A stretch of DNA of 64,000 bases, taken from the NCBI GenBank assembly GCA_044229975.1, contig JBGARZ010000005.1:128001-192000 (forward strand), written 5' to 3'. The notes below the pieces were generated by a model. The model was not told where the DNA came from. It ran no database searches and saw only the letters and a list, made by a program, of their open reading frames with translations. Both the position numbers and the translations under genes were made by a program. The stretch is from Polyangiales bacterium (GTDB lineage: Bacteria; Myxococcota_A; Polyangia; Polyangiales; Ga0077539). Within the stretch, counting starts at the first letter, position 1, and every line of letters starts with the position of its first letter. Below are positions 45,628 through 52,616 of the stretch, in pieces.

Positions 45628-45690
45628 CGACGGTGGGGCACTCTCTACGCGCAAGCCCCCCGGCGCGGCAAGTCGCGCCCGGTCGAGGGC

Positions 45691-46953
45691 TCAACGCGCC
45701 ACGCACTGTCCGCGGAGCAGGTAGCCGCCCTCCGCCGCGGGCTCGCCGAAGATCACCCACGCCCGGGTTGCCGTCGGGTTGAGGGCGGCGCCGAAGAGGC
45801 GGAGGTTGCGTTCGGTGGTTCCGCGGTAGGCGGTGGCGTGGGCCCCGCGCTCGCCCCACTGGGCCTCGATGGACGAGTTGTAGCCGCCGCCCGAAGGTCG
45901 GCTCGCCCACGCCATGAAGAGCTCACCCGCGGAGGTGGAGGCGAGGGCGCCGGTGGTGGCGTTCCAGGCGGCGCCGGGGTGGAGGAGCGTCGGGAGGATG
46001 GGGGTGCGGCGCGCGAGGGTCATCGGGTCGCGCTCTTCGAGGGCGACGTCGACCTCGCGCACGCCGCGGTACACGAGGCGGTAGAGGGCCGATGGTGTCT
46101 CGACGAAGGCCGACGCGCTGGCGTCGTCGCCCGCCTCGTCGCCGACCTCGATGATGGAGCCGTGGCCCGAGATGAAGCGGCGCATGCGGAGCCGACCACC
46201 GACGTCCTCCAGCGCGGCGTAGCTGCTGCCGCCGTCCTGAAGTGTCACCGACGCGCCCGGCCCGATGGGGTCGATGCTGGGGTTGTTGGGGGTGTTGACG
46301 GTGATGCGGGCGCCGCTGGTGAAGACGAGCGCCGTGTCGGAGGTGACGACGCGGAAGTTCGATGGGGACAGCGTGCGGGCGACGCGGGCGACGCGGGGGG
46401 AGAGGTCGAGGGTGTTGGTGAGGGAGAGGGTTCCGCCGGAGCGGGCGATGATGTGGAGGGAGGGGCCAACGGCGATGGCGCCGGTGTCGCCCGAAAAGGA
46501 GAGCGAGAGCGCGTCGGGGGCGGCGCCGCGGGACGGGAGTTGGAGGGGAATGCCGACAGGACGGATGGGGGTGAGGTCGGGGTCGTAGACGCGAACGACG
46601 GTGGTGTTGTCCGCGGCTTGAACCCAGGCGAGCGCGAAGCCGCCGCCGTCGAGGGGCTCGATGGCGGCGAGCGAGACGCGAGCGCCCTCGGCGAGGATGA
46701 AGGAGCCGCCGCAGCGCGAGGCGGGCGGCGCATCGACGGGGAGCGGCGGGACGTCGGCGGCGACGACGGGCGGACGATCGGTCGGGCGCGACGCGTCGAC
46801 GAAGACGAGCGGGACATCGGGCGCGGCGGCAGCATCGGGCGCGGCGGGGACGTCGGGTGTGGTGGAGGCGTCGGGGGCGTCGACGGTGACGGTGTTGGCG
46901 CAGGCACCGAGCAGGAGCGAGAGGGCGACGAGGCAACGGGAGGAGGCGAGCAT
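45691..46953 (-). CDS. Hypothetical lipoprotein
   Basis: Lipobox LLGAC; PDA/PDV-rich linker; beta-rich domain. Confidence 0.75.
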   Translation of the reverse strand: MLASSRCLVALSLLLGACANTVTVDAPDASTTPDVPAAPDAAAAPDVPLVFVDASRPTDRPPVVAADVPPLPVDAPPASRCGGSFILAEGARVSLAAIEPLDGGGFALAWVQAADNTTVVRVYDPDLTPIRPVGIPLQLPSRGAAPDALSLSFSGDTGAIAVGPSLHIIARSGGTLSLTNTLDLSPRVARVARTLSPSNFRVVTSDTALVFTSGARITVNTPNNPSIDPIGPGASVTLQDGGSSYAALEDVGGRLRMRRFISGHGSIIEVGDEAGDDASASAFVETPSALYRLVYRGVREVDVALEERDPMTLARRTPILPTLLHPGAAWNATTGALASTSAGELFMAWASRPSGGGYNSSIEAQWGERGAHATAYRGTTERNLRLFGAALNPTATRAWVIFGEPAAEGGYLLRGQCVAR

Positions 46954-47006
46954 GGCGGTGGGGTGGCCGGGTGGGGGGTGATCCGTCGGGGAAATTTCGT
47001 CGGAGG

Positions 47007-47031
47007 GCCGCAAGGGCGCGAGGATCGCAAG
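47007..47031. repeat. Solo copy of the 4421-4610 inverted-repeat arm
   Basis: gccgcaagggcgcgaggatcgcaag matches the arm core gccgcaagggcgcaagggtcgcaag. Confidence 0.55.
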
Positions 47032-47300
47032 GGGCTACGAGCTGGGAAGCGGGCCGTATCGGTCGATTGGGCGGATCGGCCGCTGACGTAGCCGCCTCGC
47101 TCCGGGAGCACCCGCCCACGCCCGCCCAACGCGGACTTACCCGGAGGGACGCGCCCGCCCACGTTCGCGGTCACCGCTGCCCCAAGCGAGAGCGCGCGTC
47201 GTTCGGGCGCGCCTCGCTCTTGACGTCGACCTCCCCGCGGCGCTGACATCGCAAGGTCGCCGCCGCTCCGTCGTCCGCCACCGAGAGGAGATTCCCGCTG

Positions 47301-47939
47301 ATGCAACGAATCAATCTGGTCGACCGCCGGTCCCCTGCCCCGCGGTCTACGCTTTCGCCGTGGCTCGCCGGCCTCGGCGGCGGTTCGGTGGTGCTGCTCC
47401 TCGCGGGGCTCTTCGTGGTGCACGCCAACGAGCGCGCCGAGACGGCCCTCCGCGAGGCCGACAACGTCCGGCAGCAGGCGGCCATCGAGGCCATCACGGC
47501 GCGCGTCACCGATCACCCCGCCGTTCGCGCCGAGCTGCGCGAGCACCAGCAGCACGCGGAGGTGGTCGACAACCTCCAGCACCGGCGCATCGACGCCTCG
47601 GCGCGGCTGCTGGAGATCTCGCGCATCCTGACCCGGGGCGGCGCGCCGACACTGCGGCCCGGCCCCGCCCGCGACTACCTGCACGCCCGCGTCTACGAGC
47701 GGCAGCCGTGGACCGCCCAATGGGATCCGCACCGCCTCTGGCTCACCGCGATGGAGGAGGACGGCGATCGGCTGCTCATCCGCGGCGAAGGTCTCTCGGT
47801 GGACGACGTCGGCGAGCTGCTCAAGCGCCTCCAGTTGAGCGCGTTCTTCAATGACGTGCGGCTGGAGCACACCGAGCTCGCGGCGGCCGACCGTGGCGCG
47901 CGAGCAACCCAGCGCTTCACCCTCGTCGCCCGCCTCTGA
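47301..47939 (+). CDS. PilN-like fimbrial assembly protein (orphan)
   Basis: MQRINLV N-terminus (INLL-like), TM, coiled coil, LWLTAMEE..L.I.G...S.FFNDVRL; GAGGAG RBS. Confidence 0.75.
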   Translation: MQRINLVDRRSPAPRSTLSPWLAGLGGGSVVLLLAGLFVVHANERAETALREADNVRQQAAIEAITARVTDHPAVRAELREHQQHAEVVDNLQHRRIDASARLLEISRILTRGGAPTLRPGPARDYLHARVYERQPWTAQWDPHRLWLTAMEEDGDRLLIRGEGLSVDDVGELLKRLQLSAFFNDVRLEHTELAAADRGARATQRFTLVARL

Positions 47940-48075
47940 CCGCAGGCGAACCCCTCCCCCAATAGTCCACGGCATGGGTCGACCGCGGTCGAAGCCGTGC
48001 ACCGCATGTGCTGAGCACGGGTTGGCTCCGGTCGAGCCTTGACCCGACGGGTTCGGTCGGCCACCTGTCCCCAGC

Positions 48076-48597
48076 GTGGTGATCGATCGGGCCTGGGCGT
48101 TGGGGTTGCTGGCGGAGATCGGGGCGCCCGCGCGGCTCGTCACCCACGCGCGCCTCGTCGGCGAGGCCGGTGACCGGCTGGTAGCGCTCGTCGCGGGCGT
48201 GGGCGTCGCGCTCGACGCCAACCTCGTGCGGGTGGGCGTCGCGCTGCACGACGTGGGGAAGACGCTGCACCCGGGTGAGCTCGATGGTCCGGGAGAGCGC
48301 CACGAGGCGGATGGTGAGCGGCTGCTCCTGGAGCGCGGCGTCGACCCGCGGATCGCGCGGGTGTGTCGATCGCACGCGCAGTGGGCGACGATGGAGTGCT
48401 CGCTGGAGGAGTTACTCATCGCGCTCGCCGACAAGCTCTGGAAGGGCGTTCGGGCGAGGCGGTTGGAGGAAGTGGTGATCGACGCCATCGCCGCGCGGCT
48501 GGGTCAGGCGCGGTGGGATGTGTTCGTGGTGCTGGACGACGGCTTCGAGGGGATTACAGCGGGCGGGGACGAGCGGCTCGCGCGGAGCCGCGGCTGA
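48076..48597 (+). CDS. Small HD-domain protein
   Basis: THARLV, ALHDVGK, HE, RSH, LADKL. Confidence 0.8.
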   Translation: MVIDRAWALGLLAEIGAPARLVTHARLVGEAGDRLVALVAGVGVALDANLVRVGVALHDVGKTLHPGELDGPGERHEADGERLLLERGVDPRIARVCRSHAQWATMECSLEELLIALADKLWKGVRARRLEEVVIDAIAARLGQARWDVFVVLDDGFEGITAGGDERLARSRG

Positions 48598-48603
48598 ACC
48601 CAG

Positions 48604-49392
48604 TCAGCGGGTGCTGGACGCCGCTTCTCGCGGGGTCGCGATGAGGGCATGCAGGAGCGCGCCGTCTTCGGCGAGCGTGTCGACGGTGCGCGCGAAGGAG
48701 CGACCCGCCACGCGGAGGGCCTGCGCAGGAAGGTTCGTTGCGAGGGCCTCCTTGTCGGCGTCACCGAGGCAGTGGAGGTCGTGGTGATCCTTCGGCGCAG
48801 CGACGTTGTCGAGCAGCGTACGGTCGACCGCCCACGCCTCATACTGCGCGACGTGGGACCCGGCGCAGACGCGGGCGCGACAGAGTTCCGAAGCGCGCTC
48901 GGTGCTCTGGTAGAGCCACGACTCGATGGAGTAGGCGGGAACGACGAGATGGAGGCGCTGCATGAGGGCGTCGACGTCGACCGCACGCCGCTCGTTGAGC
49001 CAGAAGCGAATCGCGGGTTCGAGCCGGTCGCGAAACTGCCGAACGTTGGTGCTGGCCTCGGCGCCGCCCTGCTTCCACGTGAGGTCGGCGTCGAGGTGGA
49101 AGAAGACGAAGCGCGGAACGTCGTCTCGATCGAGCAGTTGATCGGCGATGTACTGCGCGAGTCGCACCCGCGACTGGTGACCGAGACCACCGCGGGCTCG
49201 CCAGAGCTTCACCCCCAGCGAAGCAAGGACGTCGGCGCCAGCGTCCTCGCGGGGGATGGTCTGCACGCCGTTCCAGTCGACGCCGACGATGAGCAGGTCG
49301 CACATCGCGCGGACGCAGGTCACGACGGGCTTCCAGCCGCTGCCGCCGGTGTCTTCGGTCAGCACGACGAAGACCGCGGCGGCGTCGGTCAC
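48604..49392 (-). CDS. TOPRIM-like protein (DUF4276/RloB-like)
   Basis: FVVLTED, FFHLDAD (DxD) and SIESWLY motifs; 4-bp overlap with the ATPase stop. Confidence 0.65.
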   Translation of the reverse strand: MTDAAAVFVVLTEDTGGSGWKPVVTCVRAMCDLLIVGVDWNGVQTIPREDAGADVLASLGVKLWRARGGLGHQSRVRLAQYIADQLLDRDDVPRFVFFHLDADLTWKQGGAEASTNVRQFRDRLEPAIRFWLNERRAVDVDALMQRLHLVVPAYSIESWLYQSTERASELCRARVCAGSHVAQYEAWAVDRTLLDNVAAPKDHHDLHCLGDADKEALATNLPAQALRVAGRSFARTVDTLAEDGALLHALIATPREAASSTR

Positions 49393-50660
49393 CAGAGGCC
49401 CTGCGTCCGCAGGATGTCGTGCACGTGCATCACGCCGTTCTGGTACGAGCGGAAGAACTCGGCGGACTGAGCGGCGTCGGGGTGCGTCCAGACGGTCTCG
49501 GTGCGGCCCTCGCCAACGGGTGACGTGCGGCAGAGGACGAACCCGCGGCGGACGTCCTCCTCGGACTCGAAGCCGAGGTGATCGAGGAGCAGGGGGTTCT
49601 GCGCGGAGACGAAGACCTGGCGGGTGCCGATGGCCTCGACGCAGGCGTCGATCCAGTCCCAGTGGAGGCCGTTGACGAGCTCATCGGCAACGACCACGTC
49701 GGGGTTGCAGGCGAGGTACCAGAAGAAGGTGAGCAGTCGTCGCTGGCCGAAGCTCCAGTGGTCGTGGGGGACCAGCGGGGAGACGCCAGACTGTGAGAAG
49801 AAGCGGAAGTTGCCGAAGGAGGGGCCGTCGCCTGAGTCCTCCTCGGTACTGACGGACGTCGCAACGACGATGATGCGTCCGCGCCCAAGCAACCCCACGC
49901 ACCGATCGAGTCCCTCGTCGCCGCCAAGATCGAACTCAACGCTAGCGCGCCCATGAGGAGACAGGTCGTTCACTTGGCGCACAAGCGCGTCGGGCACGAA
50001 CTCTCCCTGAAGCGATGGTCCCCCGGATGTTCGAAACCACTCGTGGATGTTTGTCATTGCCACCCGCGGTGGCGACGCGGTTCGAGCATGCCCCTTCGTG
50101 CCGGTGAGCACGTCGAACATCCCAACCCCCTCGTCCATGCGGTAGCAAGCCATGGCGTGGCCCCAGGGACGCATCCGGACTCCGCCTTCGACTTTGTCTA
50201 GCTGCTCTCCAAAAAGCGATGCATCGACGCGTGACCTCCGTAGTGGGTTGTCGGAGTGCACTTCCTTTGCATCGACCGCTCCGACCTTAGACGAACGGAA
50301 TTCCGCGACGAGAACCTTGTCGACGATGATGGCTCGACTGGCATCAAGCTTCACAACCCTCACTAGCGCAGCAAGATCACTCCGAGCTCCACCCGAACTC
50401 CTCCACGTCGGTGTGTTCGTTGAGCACACTACGAACGTCGACCCATCTTCCGCCACCAGTTCGTACTCGATCGCGAACGCCTCCCCCTGCAACGCCGACA
50501 GATCATCGCGCAGCACCATCGAGATCAGGTTGAGCAGCGTGGTCTTCCCGCTCCCATTGCGGCCGACCAGCACGTTCCACCCGTCGCCGAAGTGCAGCTC
50601 GGTGCCCGGCCGCACGTCGCGGAAGTGCTCGATCTTCAGCCGCCGCAGCCGGGTCGCCAT
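49389..50660 (-). CDS. ABC-type (AAA_21/AAA_15-like) ATPase
   Basis: LKIEHFR, Walker A GRNGSGKT, signature WSFGQRR, Walker B VVVADE, LVNGLH. Confidence 0.88.
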   Translation of the reverse strand: MATRLRRLKIEHFRDVRPGTELHFGDGWNVLVGRNGSGKTTLLNLISMVLRDDLSALQGEAFAIEYELVAEDGSTFVVCSTNTPTWRSSGGARSDLAALVRVVKLDASRAIIVDKVLVAEFRSSKVGAVDAKEVHSDNPLRRSRVDASLFGEQLDKVEGGVRMRPWGHAMACYRMDEGVGMFDVLTGTKGHARTASPPRVAMTNIHEWFRTSGGPSLQGEFVPDALVRQVNDLSPHGRASVEFDLGGDEGLDRCVGLLGRGRIIVVATSVSTEEDSGDGPSFGNFRFFSQSGVSPLVPHDHWSFGQRRLLTFFWYLACNPDVVVADELVNGLHWDWIDACVEAIGTRQVFVSAQNPLLLDHLGFESEEDVRRGFVLCRTSPVGEGRTETVWTHPDAAQSAEFFRSYQNGVMHVHDILRTQGLW

Positions 50661-50681
50661 CGCTCGCTCGCGCCCCGCCGC

Positions 50682-51167
50682 CTACTCGCGGAAGTTGTTG
50701 TACTGCGCCTCGAAGGCCAGATCGCTCGCCTTCAACATCCGCATCGTCGCCTGGAGGTCGTCGCGGTTCTTCCCGGTGATGCGCACCGTGTCCTCGTGGA
50801 TCGACGCCTGCACCTTCAGCTTCGACTCCTTCACGAGCTCGATGACCTTCTTGGCGTTCTCGCGGTCGATGCCCTCCTTGAACTTCACCAGCTGCCGGAA
50901 CGTCCGCTGCCCCGCCGGCTTCGCCTCTTGCGGGTCCAACTGCTTCAGCGACACGCCGCGCTTCAGCATCTTCGCGATGAGCACCTCGTAGGCGGCCTCG
51001 ACGCGCCCCTCGCTGCTCGACACGATCACGATCCCCTCGGCGTTGCGCTCGATGGTGGTGCCCGTGTCGCGGAAGTCGAAGCGCGTCCCGATCTCCTTCT
51101 GCGACTGCAACAGCGCGTTATCGACCTCGGGCTGGTTGATCTTCGACACGACATCAAACGACGGCAT
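50682..51167 (-). CDS. yajQ: YajQ-family nucleotide/c-di-GMP-binding protein
   Basis: MPSFDVVS, RFDF, VRITGKNRDDLQ, ends NNFRE. Confidence 0.96.
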   Translation of the reverse strand: MPSFDVVSKINQPEVDNALLQSQKEIGTRFDFRDTGTTIERNAEGIVIVSSSEGRVEAAYEVLIAKMLKRGVSLKQLDPQEAKPAGQRTFRQLVKFKEGIDRENAKKVIELVKESKLKVQASIHEDTVRITGKNRDDLQATMRMLKASDLAFEAQYNNFRE

Positions 51168-51199: not shown

Positions 51200-51823
51200 C
51201 TACGCGCTGCCAGCAGCGCGCAAGGTTTCACCCGCGGTCCAGAGGTCGGCCAATGCCTCCGTCGCGAGCGTCACGCGGTCGATGCCCCGCTCGGCCTCCA
51301 GCACCCGCTGGCGCATCGCCGGGTCGATGATGAAGCGGTCGACCAGCCGCAGCGCCAGCCGCGACGACGGGAGCTCCGTCGGCACCACGTACTCGAACTG
51401 CGGCCGCGTCTCCCGCACCACCCGCATCACCGCCGACAGCGTCGCCATCATCGCGAGGCGCTCGACCGACGGCACCTCGGCGTCATCGGGCTCCAGCATC
51501 GCCGTCGCCTTCACCCGCCGATAGGGCGGAACAAACTCCAGCTCCTCCAACGTCACCCGCACCATCCCCTCCACCAGGATGTTGAAGCGCCCGTCCGGGA
51601 GCTGCTGGTTGGCCACGATGCGCCCCGCCGTCGCGATGTTCGCAAAGGCCGGGTGCTCCTCCGCGGGGTCGCCCACGATGGGCGCCACCACCAGCCAGCC
51701 GTGCGTCGAGAGCGAGTCGCGCACCATCGCCCGGTACCGCGGCTCGAAGATGTGCAGCGGCATCCGCTGGTCGGGCAGCAGCACCACCCCGGGCAACGGA
51801 AACACCGGAACGGCCTCCAACAT
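51200..51823 (-). CDS. LON peptidase substrate-binding domain protein
   Basis: PVFPLPGVVLLP...PLHIFEPRYRAMV, LPDGRFNI. Confidence 0.9.
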   Translation of the reverse strand: MLEAVPVFPLPGVVLLPDQRMPLHIFEPRYRAMVRDSLSTHGWLVVAPIVGDPAEEHPAFANIATAGRIVANQQLPDGRFNILVEGMVRVTLEELEFVPPYRRVKATAMLEPDDAEVPSVERLAMMATLSAVMRVVRETRPQFEYVVPTELPSSRLALRLVDRFIIDPAMRQRVLEAERGIDRVTLATEALADLWTAGETLRAAGSA

Positions 51824-51825
51824 CG

Positions 51826-52401
51826 CTACCCCCGCCCCATCGCGACCGAGTCGAGAAACTCCCGCCGCCCCGCCGCGTCGTCCACCCACTGCCCCGCCCA
51901 CGACTGCGTCACCAGCACCGACTCCACCTGCCGCTCACCGCGCAGCGTCAGGCACGCGTGCCGACCCTCCAGCACCACGCCCGCCGCCCGCGCCCCGAGG
52001 TGCGTGACCAGCGCCTCGACCACCTGCCGACCGAGCGTCTCCTGCAACACCAGCCGGTGCGCGAAGCACTCCACCAGTTGCACCAACGCACCGAGGCCGA
52101 CGATGCGACCGCCCGGCAGGTACCCGAGATGCGCCCGCCCCGCGCACGGCAACAGGTGGTGCGGGCACATGGTCACGAAGGAGATGCTCGTGAGCACCAC
52201 CATCGTCTTCTCGTCCGACGGCAACGACTCGGCGAGCACCACATCGGGCGAGCGCCGATAGCCGTCGAGCAGCTCGTCATGCCACGCGCGGGCCGTGCGT
52301 TCGGGTGCGCCCGAGAGCTCCGCATCGTCGTCCAACGGAACACCCAGAGACCGGAGGAAGGTTCGCAGCGCCTGCGCCGCCTCGTCGATGGTGTCGGCCA
52401 T
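51826..52401 (-). CDS. folE: GTP cyclohydrolase I
   Basis: PERTARAW, MCPHHLLP, GYLP, RLVLQE, HACLTLRG. Confidence 0.9.
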   Translation of the reverse strand: MADTIDEAAQALRTFLRSLGVPLDDDAELSGAPERTARAWHDELLDGYRRSPDVVLAESLPSDEKTMVVLTSISFVTMCPHHLLPCAGRAHLGYLPGGRIVGLGALVQLVECFAHRLVLQETLGRQVVEALVTHLGARAAGVVLEGRHACLTLRGERQVESVLVTQSWAGQWVDDAAGRREFLDSVAMGRG

Positions 52402-52616
52402 GTGCAGGGCTCTCTCGGAGAAGAACGATCGGGGTCGTCGCGACACCCGAAAGCCCCTGTTGGATGCCGCAAGTGCCCGTCGGCCGCAACCTTCGTCCCC
52501 CGTCGCACGACAGGGCCCGCCGCGCCGCCGATGCAGTGACCCCCACGCGCGGTTGCGGGGATGGTTCCCCGAGACGTAGCGTGGGTGGCGGAGCGCGAGA
52601 GAAGGACACCGTCCCC

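Follow-up and report, generated by a model that had tools for sequence, protein, structure and literature searches.

What decides which trigger an ABC-ATPase defence system responds to is, to our knowledge, largely open for PARIS, OLD, Gabija, Septu and Menshen, and inserts in these systems are the suspected determinants. In PARIS (AriA/AriB, also "class 4 OLD"), the available passages of PMC11464382 place the effector over the ATPase dimer interface and describe the trigger-binding pore residues of AriA as poorly conserved. An AAA_21 ATPase paired with a Toprim effector is likewise described, in passages of PMC12065111 and PMC11464382, for the DUF4276 pairs (Mad3-Mad4 of MADS, the Menshen effector) and the RloB/AbiL pairs. 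Here we examine a gene pair of this architecture at positions 48604-50660 of a 64,000-nucleotide (nt) stretch, hereafter the window, from the genome of a Polyangiales bacterium (GenBank assembly GCA_044229975.1, contig JBGARZ010000005.1, positions 128,001 to 192,000 of the forward strand). By analogy with PARIS, we find it fairly probable that the pair is a sensor-toxin anti-phage system whose trigger-sensing inserts are exchangeable. The mosaic insert in the ATPase is the most distinctive trait of the locus and one that the initial annotation of the sequence had missed. The parts of the pair are listed here.

49389..50660, minus strand: ABC ATPase, predicted sensor/antitoxin (Pfam AAA_21 48.7 bits, cut-off 27; predicted local distance difference test score (pLDDT) of the model 85.7)
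49950..50456, minus strand: mosaic central insert of the ATPase (amino acids 69-237), predicted specificity cassette; guanine-cytosine (GC) fraction lower, 0.60
50145-50456, minus strand: Insert 1, beta-rich in the model
50100-50144, minus strand: short conserved strand/Q-loop island between Insert 1 and Insert 2
49950-50099, minus strand: Insert 2
48604..49392, minus strand: predicted Toprim nuclease with a C-terminal helical lobe, 262 amino acids, predicted effector (model pLDDT 95.9)

The two translationally coupled open reading frames (ORFs) first proposed for this region are confirmed: an ATPase of 423 amino acids is followed by the partner, which begins with GTG, and the two share a 4-nt overlap, GTGA. 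All motifs quoted in the initial annotation are present, namely Walker A GRNGSGKT (33-40), WSFGQRR (302-308), Walker B VVVADE (322-327) and VSAQNP (351-356) in the ATPase, and VLTED (10-14), HLDAD (99-103) and SIESW (155-159) in the partner.

When the window was compared by blastn with two same-genus orthologues, the pair region aligned at 81-85% identity and dropped out over most of 49950-50435. The break is also seen in the protein, where identity to the ATPase orthologue of genome G005 is 94% over amino acids 1-70, 35% over 71-242 and 86% over 243-423, and GC at third codon positions (GC3) falls from 0.9-1.0 to 0.5-0.7 across much of the middle of the ATPase. Seven close relatives, 87-99% identical at the ends, carry four insert types that are 18-34% identical between types, with Insert 1 and Insert 2 changing together across the seven. 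Among 30 ATPase pairs whose cores share 90% identity or more, which are kin rather than independent and include one duplicate, the identity of the insert has a median of 28% (range 18-100). In ten pairs with a diverged insert, identity in the worst alignment window was 31-55% for the ATPase compared to 61-98% for neighbouring orthologues, and it was 80% for the ATPase of the closest pair. A small control set of 14 pairs of HEC-01A-like and DUF4276-associated ATPases behaved differently, with the middle following the ends (59-98%). The insert retains its length, reading frame and predicted beta-structure.

Silent sites and trees were examined as well. At four-fold degenerate sites of identical residues, 24 of 54 differ in the insert against 22 of 247 elsewhere between L108 and L115 (p 5e-9), while L109 and L112 show the reverse pattern, with the insert closer (9/87) than the partner (38/125); both comparisons were picked by eye after the table had been seen. 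In each of the two six-taxon Sorangium sets, the insert tree and the partner tree are mutually rejected (approximately unbiased (AU) test, p <= 0.0012). Over 41 intact pairs, identity in the ATPase core correlates with identity in the partner (Spearman 0.56, Mantel p 0.001), a correlation obtainable from shared ancestry alone, and the value for insert and partner is 0.09. No silent donor cassettes were found in the same genome, where each gene is single-copy. We infer from these alignments that the inserts are old alleles kept in balance and swapped by homologous recombination in the conserved flanks.

The partner had no match in Pfam, PADLOC (up to v2.0.0) or NCBIfam, in keeping with the earlier suggestion that it might be an unnamed member of its class, and a PDB sequence search with a 68-row partner profile returned one chance row (E 1.3). 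An AlphaFold2 model built from 150 sequences had a mean pLDDT of 95.9, and each of its five best Foldseek rows is the C-terminal region of a class 2 OLD nuclease (probability 0.94-1.0, E 0.011-0.071), with template modelling (TM) scores of 0.39-0.43 by query and 0.47-0.52 by target. The top row in VIA-align is Bp OLD (6nk8; Z 6.1, root-mean-square deviation 4.9, 186 aligned), and AriB and T. scotoductus OLD both stand at Z 4.5 among unrelated rows. These moderate fold scores are insufficient alone and are supported by the conservation of partner residues. Passages of PMC12065111 define the Toprim superfamily by a Glu after strand 1 and a DxD after the central strand, and the partner model has this layout, with E13 after strand 6-12 and D101/D103 after strand 94-99. 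E13, D14, D101, D103 and E157 are invariant in all 150 relatives, K201 is found in 141 and S155 in 123. By order and secondary structure, E13, D101, D103, S155, E157 and K201 correspond to E400, D455, D457, T506, E508 and K562 of Bp OLD, as those residues are given in passages of PMC7049728. The partner is predicted to be a Toprim nuclease with an OLD-like fold of Toprim plus helical domain.

As for its substrate, we weakly favour DNA over tRNA, because its best fold matches are DNases of OLD class 2, K201 is ordered like K562 and the Arg of the AriB type is absent. AriB, according to passages of PMC10802264, is without an equivalent of K562 and has an Arg two residues past the catalytic Glu that contacts RNA; the partner has T15 at that position, and the Arg is missing from the family consensus too.

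The ATPase passes the Pfam AAA_21 cut-off, and its best stretches in PADLOC and NCBIfam cover the Walker A region only and lie far under the NCBIfam cut-offs. Its model has beta-strands and short helices in amino acids 62-245 with no long coiled coil, and pLDDT falls below 50 at amino acids 122-129 and 154-165. Foldseek matches this model to PtuA, Rad50/SMC and AriA (208 rows at E <= 0.001, down to 6e-9), with RecN also among the fold matches, and the protein is predicted to have an ABC fold of the AAA_21 group. Together with the OLD C-terminal regions matched by the partner model, the matches to PtuA, Rad50 and AriA bear out the architecture of an ABC ATPase with a Toprim-type partner that the initial annotation had put forward.

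All 90 ATPase rows keep K39 of Walker A, D326/E327 of Walker B and W423 at the terminus; the D-loop His is found in 88 rows, as is the H-loop Gln. The family also has a degenerate Q-loop (RxDE), a signature of the form S[YFW]GQ, Walker B DE and conserved C-terminal helices that end in the invariant Trp. The Gln in place of the switch His had been singled out as unusual, which gave it too much weight: it is shared family-wide, and all nine extracted ATPases of one DUF4276-associated clade (L133-L140 and L160) read TQS at the switch, so the switch His is repeatedly missing in pairs of this architecture, and the Gln switch was rejected as a unique hallmark of the family. TAP1 has a similar switch substitution. 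Class 1 OLD proteins often have Asn at this position, as stated in passages of PMC7049728.

A family profile built from 25 partner homologues was run against clusters made at the 50% identity level. It matched 626 of them at E <= 0.001, and 540 still matched at E <= 1e-10; by these profile matches the partner family is large and sharply bounded, with about 600 clusters that are mostly myxobacterial. Of 57 confirmed GTDB loci, 49 have record titles naming myxobacterial groups, 4 only "delta proteobacteria" and 4 other labels. The ATPase lies immediately upstream of the partner in 56 of them, the 57th beginning at a contig end, and both genes have conserved homologues, so the pairing is not due to chance; the commonest spacing is the -4 overlap. 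Ten further loci came from the phylum sample, two of which repeat contigs of the 57-locus set, and here the ATPase was present in nine (in one as a single fused ORF) with the tenth cut by a contig end. At G297 locus L095:3443-5290 (minus strand), ATPase and Toprim partner form one 616-amino-acid ORF resembling AriAB fusions; it stands alone and may therefore be a sequencing or assembly error, and the empty result of a search for longer, fused partner forms is weak evidence. In a tree of core pieces, a long branch with support 100 separates 45 family ATPases from 26 others in the same group of genomes, some HEC-01A-like, some DUF4276-associated and some of other kinds. This was a quick tree built without a mixture model, and the meeting of long branches is flagged.

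The initial annotation had also raised the prospect of vertically conserved core content. Instead, the pair is accessory, being present in 15 of 30 same-family genomes, in 12 of 301 genomes of the phylum sample (only nine candidates per genome were scored) and in 14 of 19 Sorangium-genus genomes, one of which holds a mere 33-amino-acid remnant. Some genomes carry two or three copies. Several copies are broken, and some of these breaks may be assembly errors. In a Corallococcus copy (L062:5107-7992), about 1.6 kb, possibly an insertion sequence, interrupts the ATPase after its N-terminal part, and in the orthologous pair of G002 (L081:3974-6228) both genes are frameshifted, through decay or assembly error.

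The placement of the pair directly downstream of yajQ (DUF520) holds as first described, with 21 nt between the yajQ stop and the ATPase start, and in genomes G006 and G012 rimO directly follows yajQ. The surrounding genes are as follows.

50682..51167, minus strand: yajQ (DUF520), conserved upstream anchor of the variable site, outside the module
51200-51823, minus strand: stand-alone Lon N-terminal-domain gene, precedes yajQ
51826-52446, minus strand: folE (GTP cyclohydrolase I), precedes yajQ
45691..48597, mixed strands: further strain-specific genes that separate the pair from rimO, given as context
48076-48597, plus strand: stand-alone gene for a small HD-domain protein, 6 nt from the predicted nuclease gene and convergent with it
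47301-47939, plus strand: lone PilN-domain gene inside the variable site, without pilM, pilO or pilP
45691-46953, minus strand: lipoprotein-like ORF without a Pfam match

The order folE, Lon N-terminal-domain gene, yajQ is kept in all eight same-genus genomes compared and is not found in two from other genera. The junction between yajQ and rimO (45655-50681) is variable, with cargo that differs per same-genus genome and is lacking in G006, and no integrase or att repeat was seen there; att-like repeats looked for at the cassette ends were not convincing. The pair follows yajQ in three of nine same-genus genomes (G000, G002 and G005) and is not at this site in G001, G003, G004, G006 and G008, while the G007 contig ends 233 nt past yajQ. 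None of the HD-domain, PilN-domain and lipoprotein-like genes was found at the yajQ site in the same-genus loci compared. In G001 the junction holds DUF924/hydrolase, glyoxalase, AraC and M50B peptidase genes. We rejected the idea that the yajQ site is a defence hotspot, as other strains carry glyoxalase, AraC, peptidase, acyltransferase, glutathione S-transferase and similar genes there. A search for a sigma-70 promoter or a terminator found none. Sequencing runs were uninformative on expression or habitat, with at most 0.13 of words matched, contigs that were fragments of relatives and an insert that was nearly uncovered.

Beyond this site, we scanned 128 non-redundant first and second neighbours of family members (from 285 genes called by a simple gene caller) with PADLOC at E <= 1e-20. 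Three of the eight matches were housekeeping cross-matches (an ABC transporter, a desaturase and a methyltransferase), and the remaining matches were a HEC-01A-like ATPase (L053), a Tox-REase-5/Imm52 pair (L047) and NERD-UvrD with RecQ (L064). The HEC-01A-type ATPase at L053:9416-10897 (minus strand) is convergent with the family member. The context most like a defence island is at L099:625-2507 (minus strand, G280), where a darT/darG-like pair (DarT, Macro) is divergent from the family member in a region of 56% GC.

Read as a PARIS-like sensor-toxin system, the ATPase dimer would hold the predicted nuclease inactive, the mosaic insert of the ATPase would detect an invader molecule, and release of the nuclease would lead to cleavage of nucleic acid and abortive arrest of the cell, with the insert being exchanged by homologous recombination in its conserved flanks. 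Binding of the partner, its sequestration, sensing by the insert, insert exchange and phage as the opponent are all points that we infer.

A number of observations weigh against this reading. The structural match between partner and Toprim is moderate and misses both a Foldseek E of 0.001 and a Z of 8. The metal-B acid of OLD and AriB, four residues past the first Glu, is unconserved in the partner family (position 17 is variable), although the invariant D14 may replace it. In the same Sorangium sets, the partner data also reject the trees of the ATPase C-terminus, so recombination extends beyond the insert; the insert stands out by the depth of its divergence. No family copy was found on IMG/VR viral contigs or PLSDB plasmids, collections that may hold few phages and plasmids of myxobacteria; mobility on either is unsupported. 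In the genus Sorangium the pair occupies syntenic sites on the chromosome. Neighbourhoods across the family are mostly housekeeping, and the genes otherwise carried at the yajQ site are metabolic or regulatory rather than defence-like. The raw count of 8 in 128 neighbours matching PADLOC gives no clear defence-island signal. Lastly, according to passages of Payne et al. (bioRxiv 10.1101/2024.01.29.577857), HEC-01, the PADLOC candidate that comes nearest among named systems, did not protect when it was tested.

Some of these same observations bear on what the pair might be instead. The same sensor-toxin biochemistry could face another opponent, with the pair acting in addiction as a toxin-antitoxin system or guarding the cell from incoming DNA such as plasmids or integrative elements, which we consider unlikely. 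Stand-alone cassettes among housekeeping genes at many unrelated sites, several copies per genome and the weak link to defence islands all fit this explanation, and PARIS itself acts as a type II toxin-antitoxin pair (passages of PMC10802264), but pure addiction fails to explain why the deep diversity of alleles is limited to the insert in the ATPase, and PLSDB yielded no plasmid copies.

We think it quite improbable that the pair is a myxobacterial self/non-self module, in which the allelic insert would respond to an incompatible allele, or to a protein that a rival or prey cell has delivered, by bringing about suicide or arrest. Allorecognition loci typically have balanced, deeply diverged alleles with conserved flanks, a pattern also seen here, and the mostly myxobacterial record titles (49 of 57, with 4 more only "delta proteobacteria") and the Tox-REase-5/Imm52 pair adjoining one locus are in its favour. 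However, the recurring neighbours show no consistent tra, sit or secretion genes, and the characterised ABC-ATPase/Toprim pairs in the cited passages of bioRxiv 10.1101/2024.01.29.577857 and PMC11464382 are all anti-phage.

Most improbable of all is a housekeeping pair for DNA repair or RNA maturation (RecF/RecR-like or RNase M5-like) with the insert as an unconstrained, drifting region: Rad50, SMC and RecN among the ATPase fold matches, syntenic retention in Sorangium and a low insert GC3 that could reflect relaxed selection speak for it, but half of the same-family genomes searched did not yield the pair, it was gained or lost at the yajQ site within one genus, broken copies occur, the insert retains length, frame and predicted beta-structure, and the silent-site divergence and tree conflict require exchange and not drift alone.

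Returning to a PARIS-like system with exchangeable sensors, the natural alleles of the family have ATPase cores that are 90-99% identical and inserts that are roughly 20-40% identical, and with cores this similar a swap of amino acids 69-237 alone tests the insert as the specificity determinant. If the insert does set specificity, the pair would be a modular sensor chassis. The family of some 600 clusters was missed by the defence and domain libraries searched and belongs to a group with little-studied immunity. A bolder proposal, which we regard as possible though rather doubtful, is that the whole insert (amino acids 69-237) is a programmable specificity cassette of an undescribed family of myxobacterial immune receptor-nucleases; exchange from strain to strain through recombination in the nucleotide-binding flanks, as in HsdS, would give an allelic series of sensors on one ATPase-Toprim chassis, with ATP binding and, through the Gln switch, slow hydrolysis possibly serving as the signal.

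Among known systems (class definitions for OLD and Toprim proteins were drawn from passages of PMC12065111 and PMC10568477), PARIS shares several general features with the pair: two genes, an ABC ATPase followed by a Toprim protein with a helical lobe, a fused form now and then (AriAB in PARIS, L095 in this family), an ATPase with a variable region, and AriA and AriB both among the fold matches of the two models. In PARIS the ATPase keeps the effector sequestered until a trigger frees it, and tRNA is cleaved. It differs in that none of 68 partners matches DUF4435 or PADLOC AriB (E <= 0.1), the equivalents of AriB D30 and R28 are unconserved in the partner family, and the pair is not on phage contigs. 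AriA has a coiled-coil bundle (passages of PMC10802264), an insert that builds its hexamer, whereas the ATPase model here has a beta-rich insert instead, and swaps of ariA and ariB between systems are rare (passages of PMC11464382), whereas here part of the ATPase gene appears to be exchanged. The class 2 OLD proteins and Gabija GajA (Bp and Xcc OLD, PDB 6NK8 and 6NJV) provide the best structural match for the partner, with Toprim and helical domains, and share the predicted E/DxD/[ST]xE/K catalytic set and a His in the ATPase D-loop. OLD classes 1-3 and Gabija are single polypeptides, with a helicase or retron partner for classes 2-3, whereas ATPase and nuclease are two separate ORFs here with no linked UvrD helicase in the operon; moreover, the SxGQ signature kept in this ATPase is absent from OLD (passages of PMC7049728).

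HEC-01 is also a two-gene ABC ATPase and Toprim system, with a similar motif order (HxD[AG]D, EAW and DPK compared to xxPK), and 4 of 68 partners match HEC-01B weakly (best E 0.0013). The partner in the window has no HEC-01B match, and genome G000 has none either; the ATPase matches HEC-01A at amino acids 3-49 only, and HEC-01B against the partner profile gave E 0.022 over 24 columns of a shallow 5-row alignment. The ATPases fall on opposite sides of the long branch with support 100, and the HEC-01A-like ATPases have a switch His, an SDG signature and no mosaic middle. For the DUF4276 pairs, one associated ATPase clade has the Gln switch and the third ESM atlas match has DUF4276 on 16% of members, but 3 of 68 partners match DUF4276 weakly (best E 0.006), hhalign gave E 0.15 and 0.24 against shallow alignments, and G000 has no match. 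The ATPase scores 38 bits against the NCBIfam MAD3 cut-off of 420 and belongs to a clade separate from the DUF4276-associated ATPases. As for RloA/RloB and AbiL, none of 68 partners matches RloB (PF13707) at E <= 0.1 in a profile-to-sequence search. The PADLOC, DUF4276, DUF4435 and RloB comparisons that the initial annotation had proposed thus leave the partner outside these families.

We found no description of the family or of insert exchange in ABC-ATPase defence sensors in the literature, though an existing ABC ATPase classification or its supplements may list the family. A parallel to the exchange lies outside these systems: HsdS of type I restriction-modification has variable specificity blocks between conserved flanks, which are exchanged by recombination and often lower in GC. 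The likeness is an analogy only, with no homology, and here the block lies within an ABC ATPase. By the tests run, the pair is not PARIS, HEC-01, MADS3-4/DUF4276, RloB or Gabija, and it is unnamed in the libraries searched. The architecture of an ABC ATPase with a Toprim protein is already known; the mosaic insert of the ATPase is what is new here.

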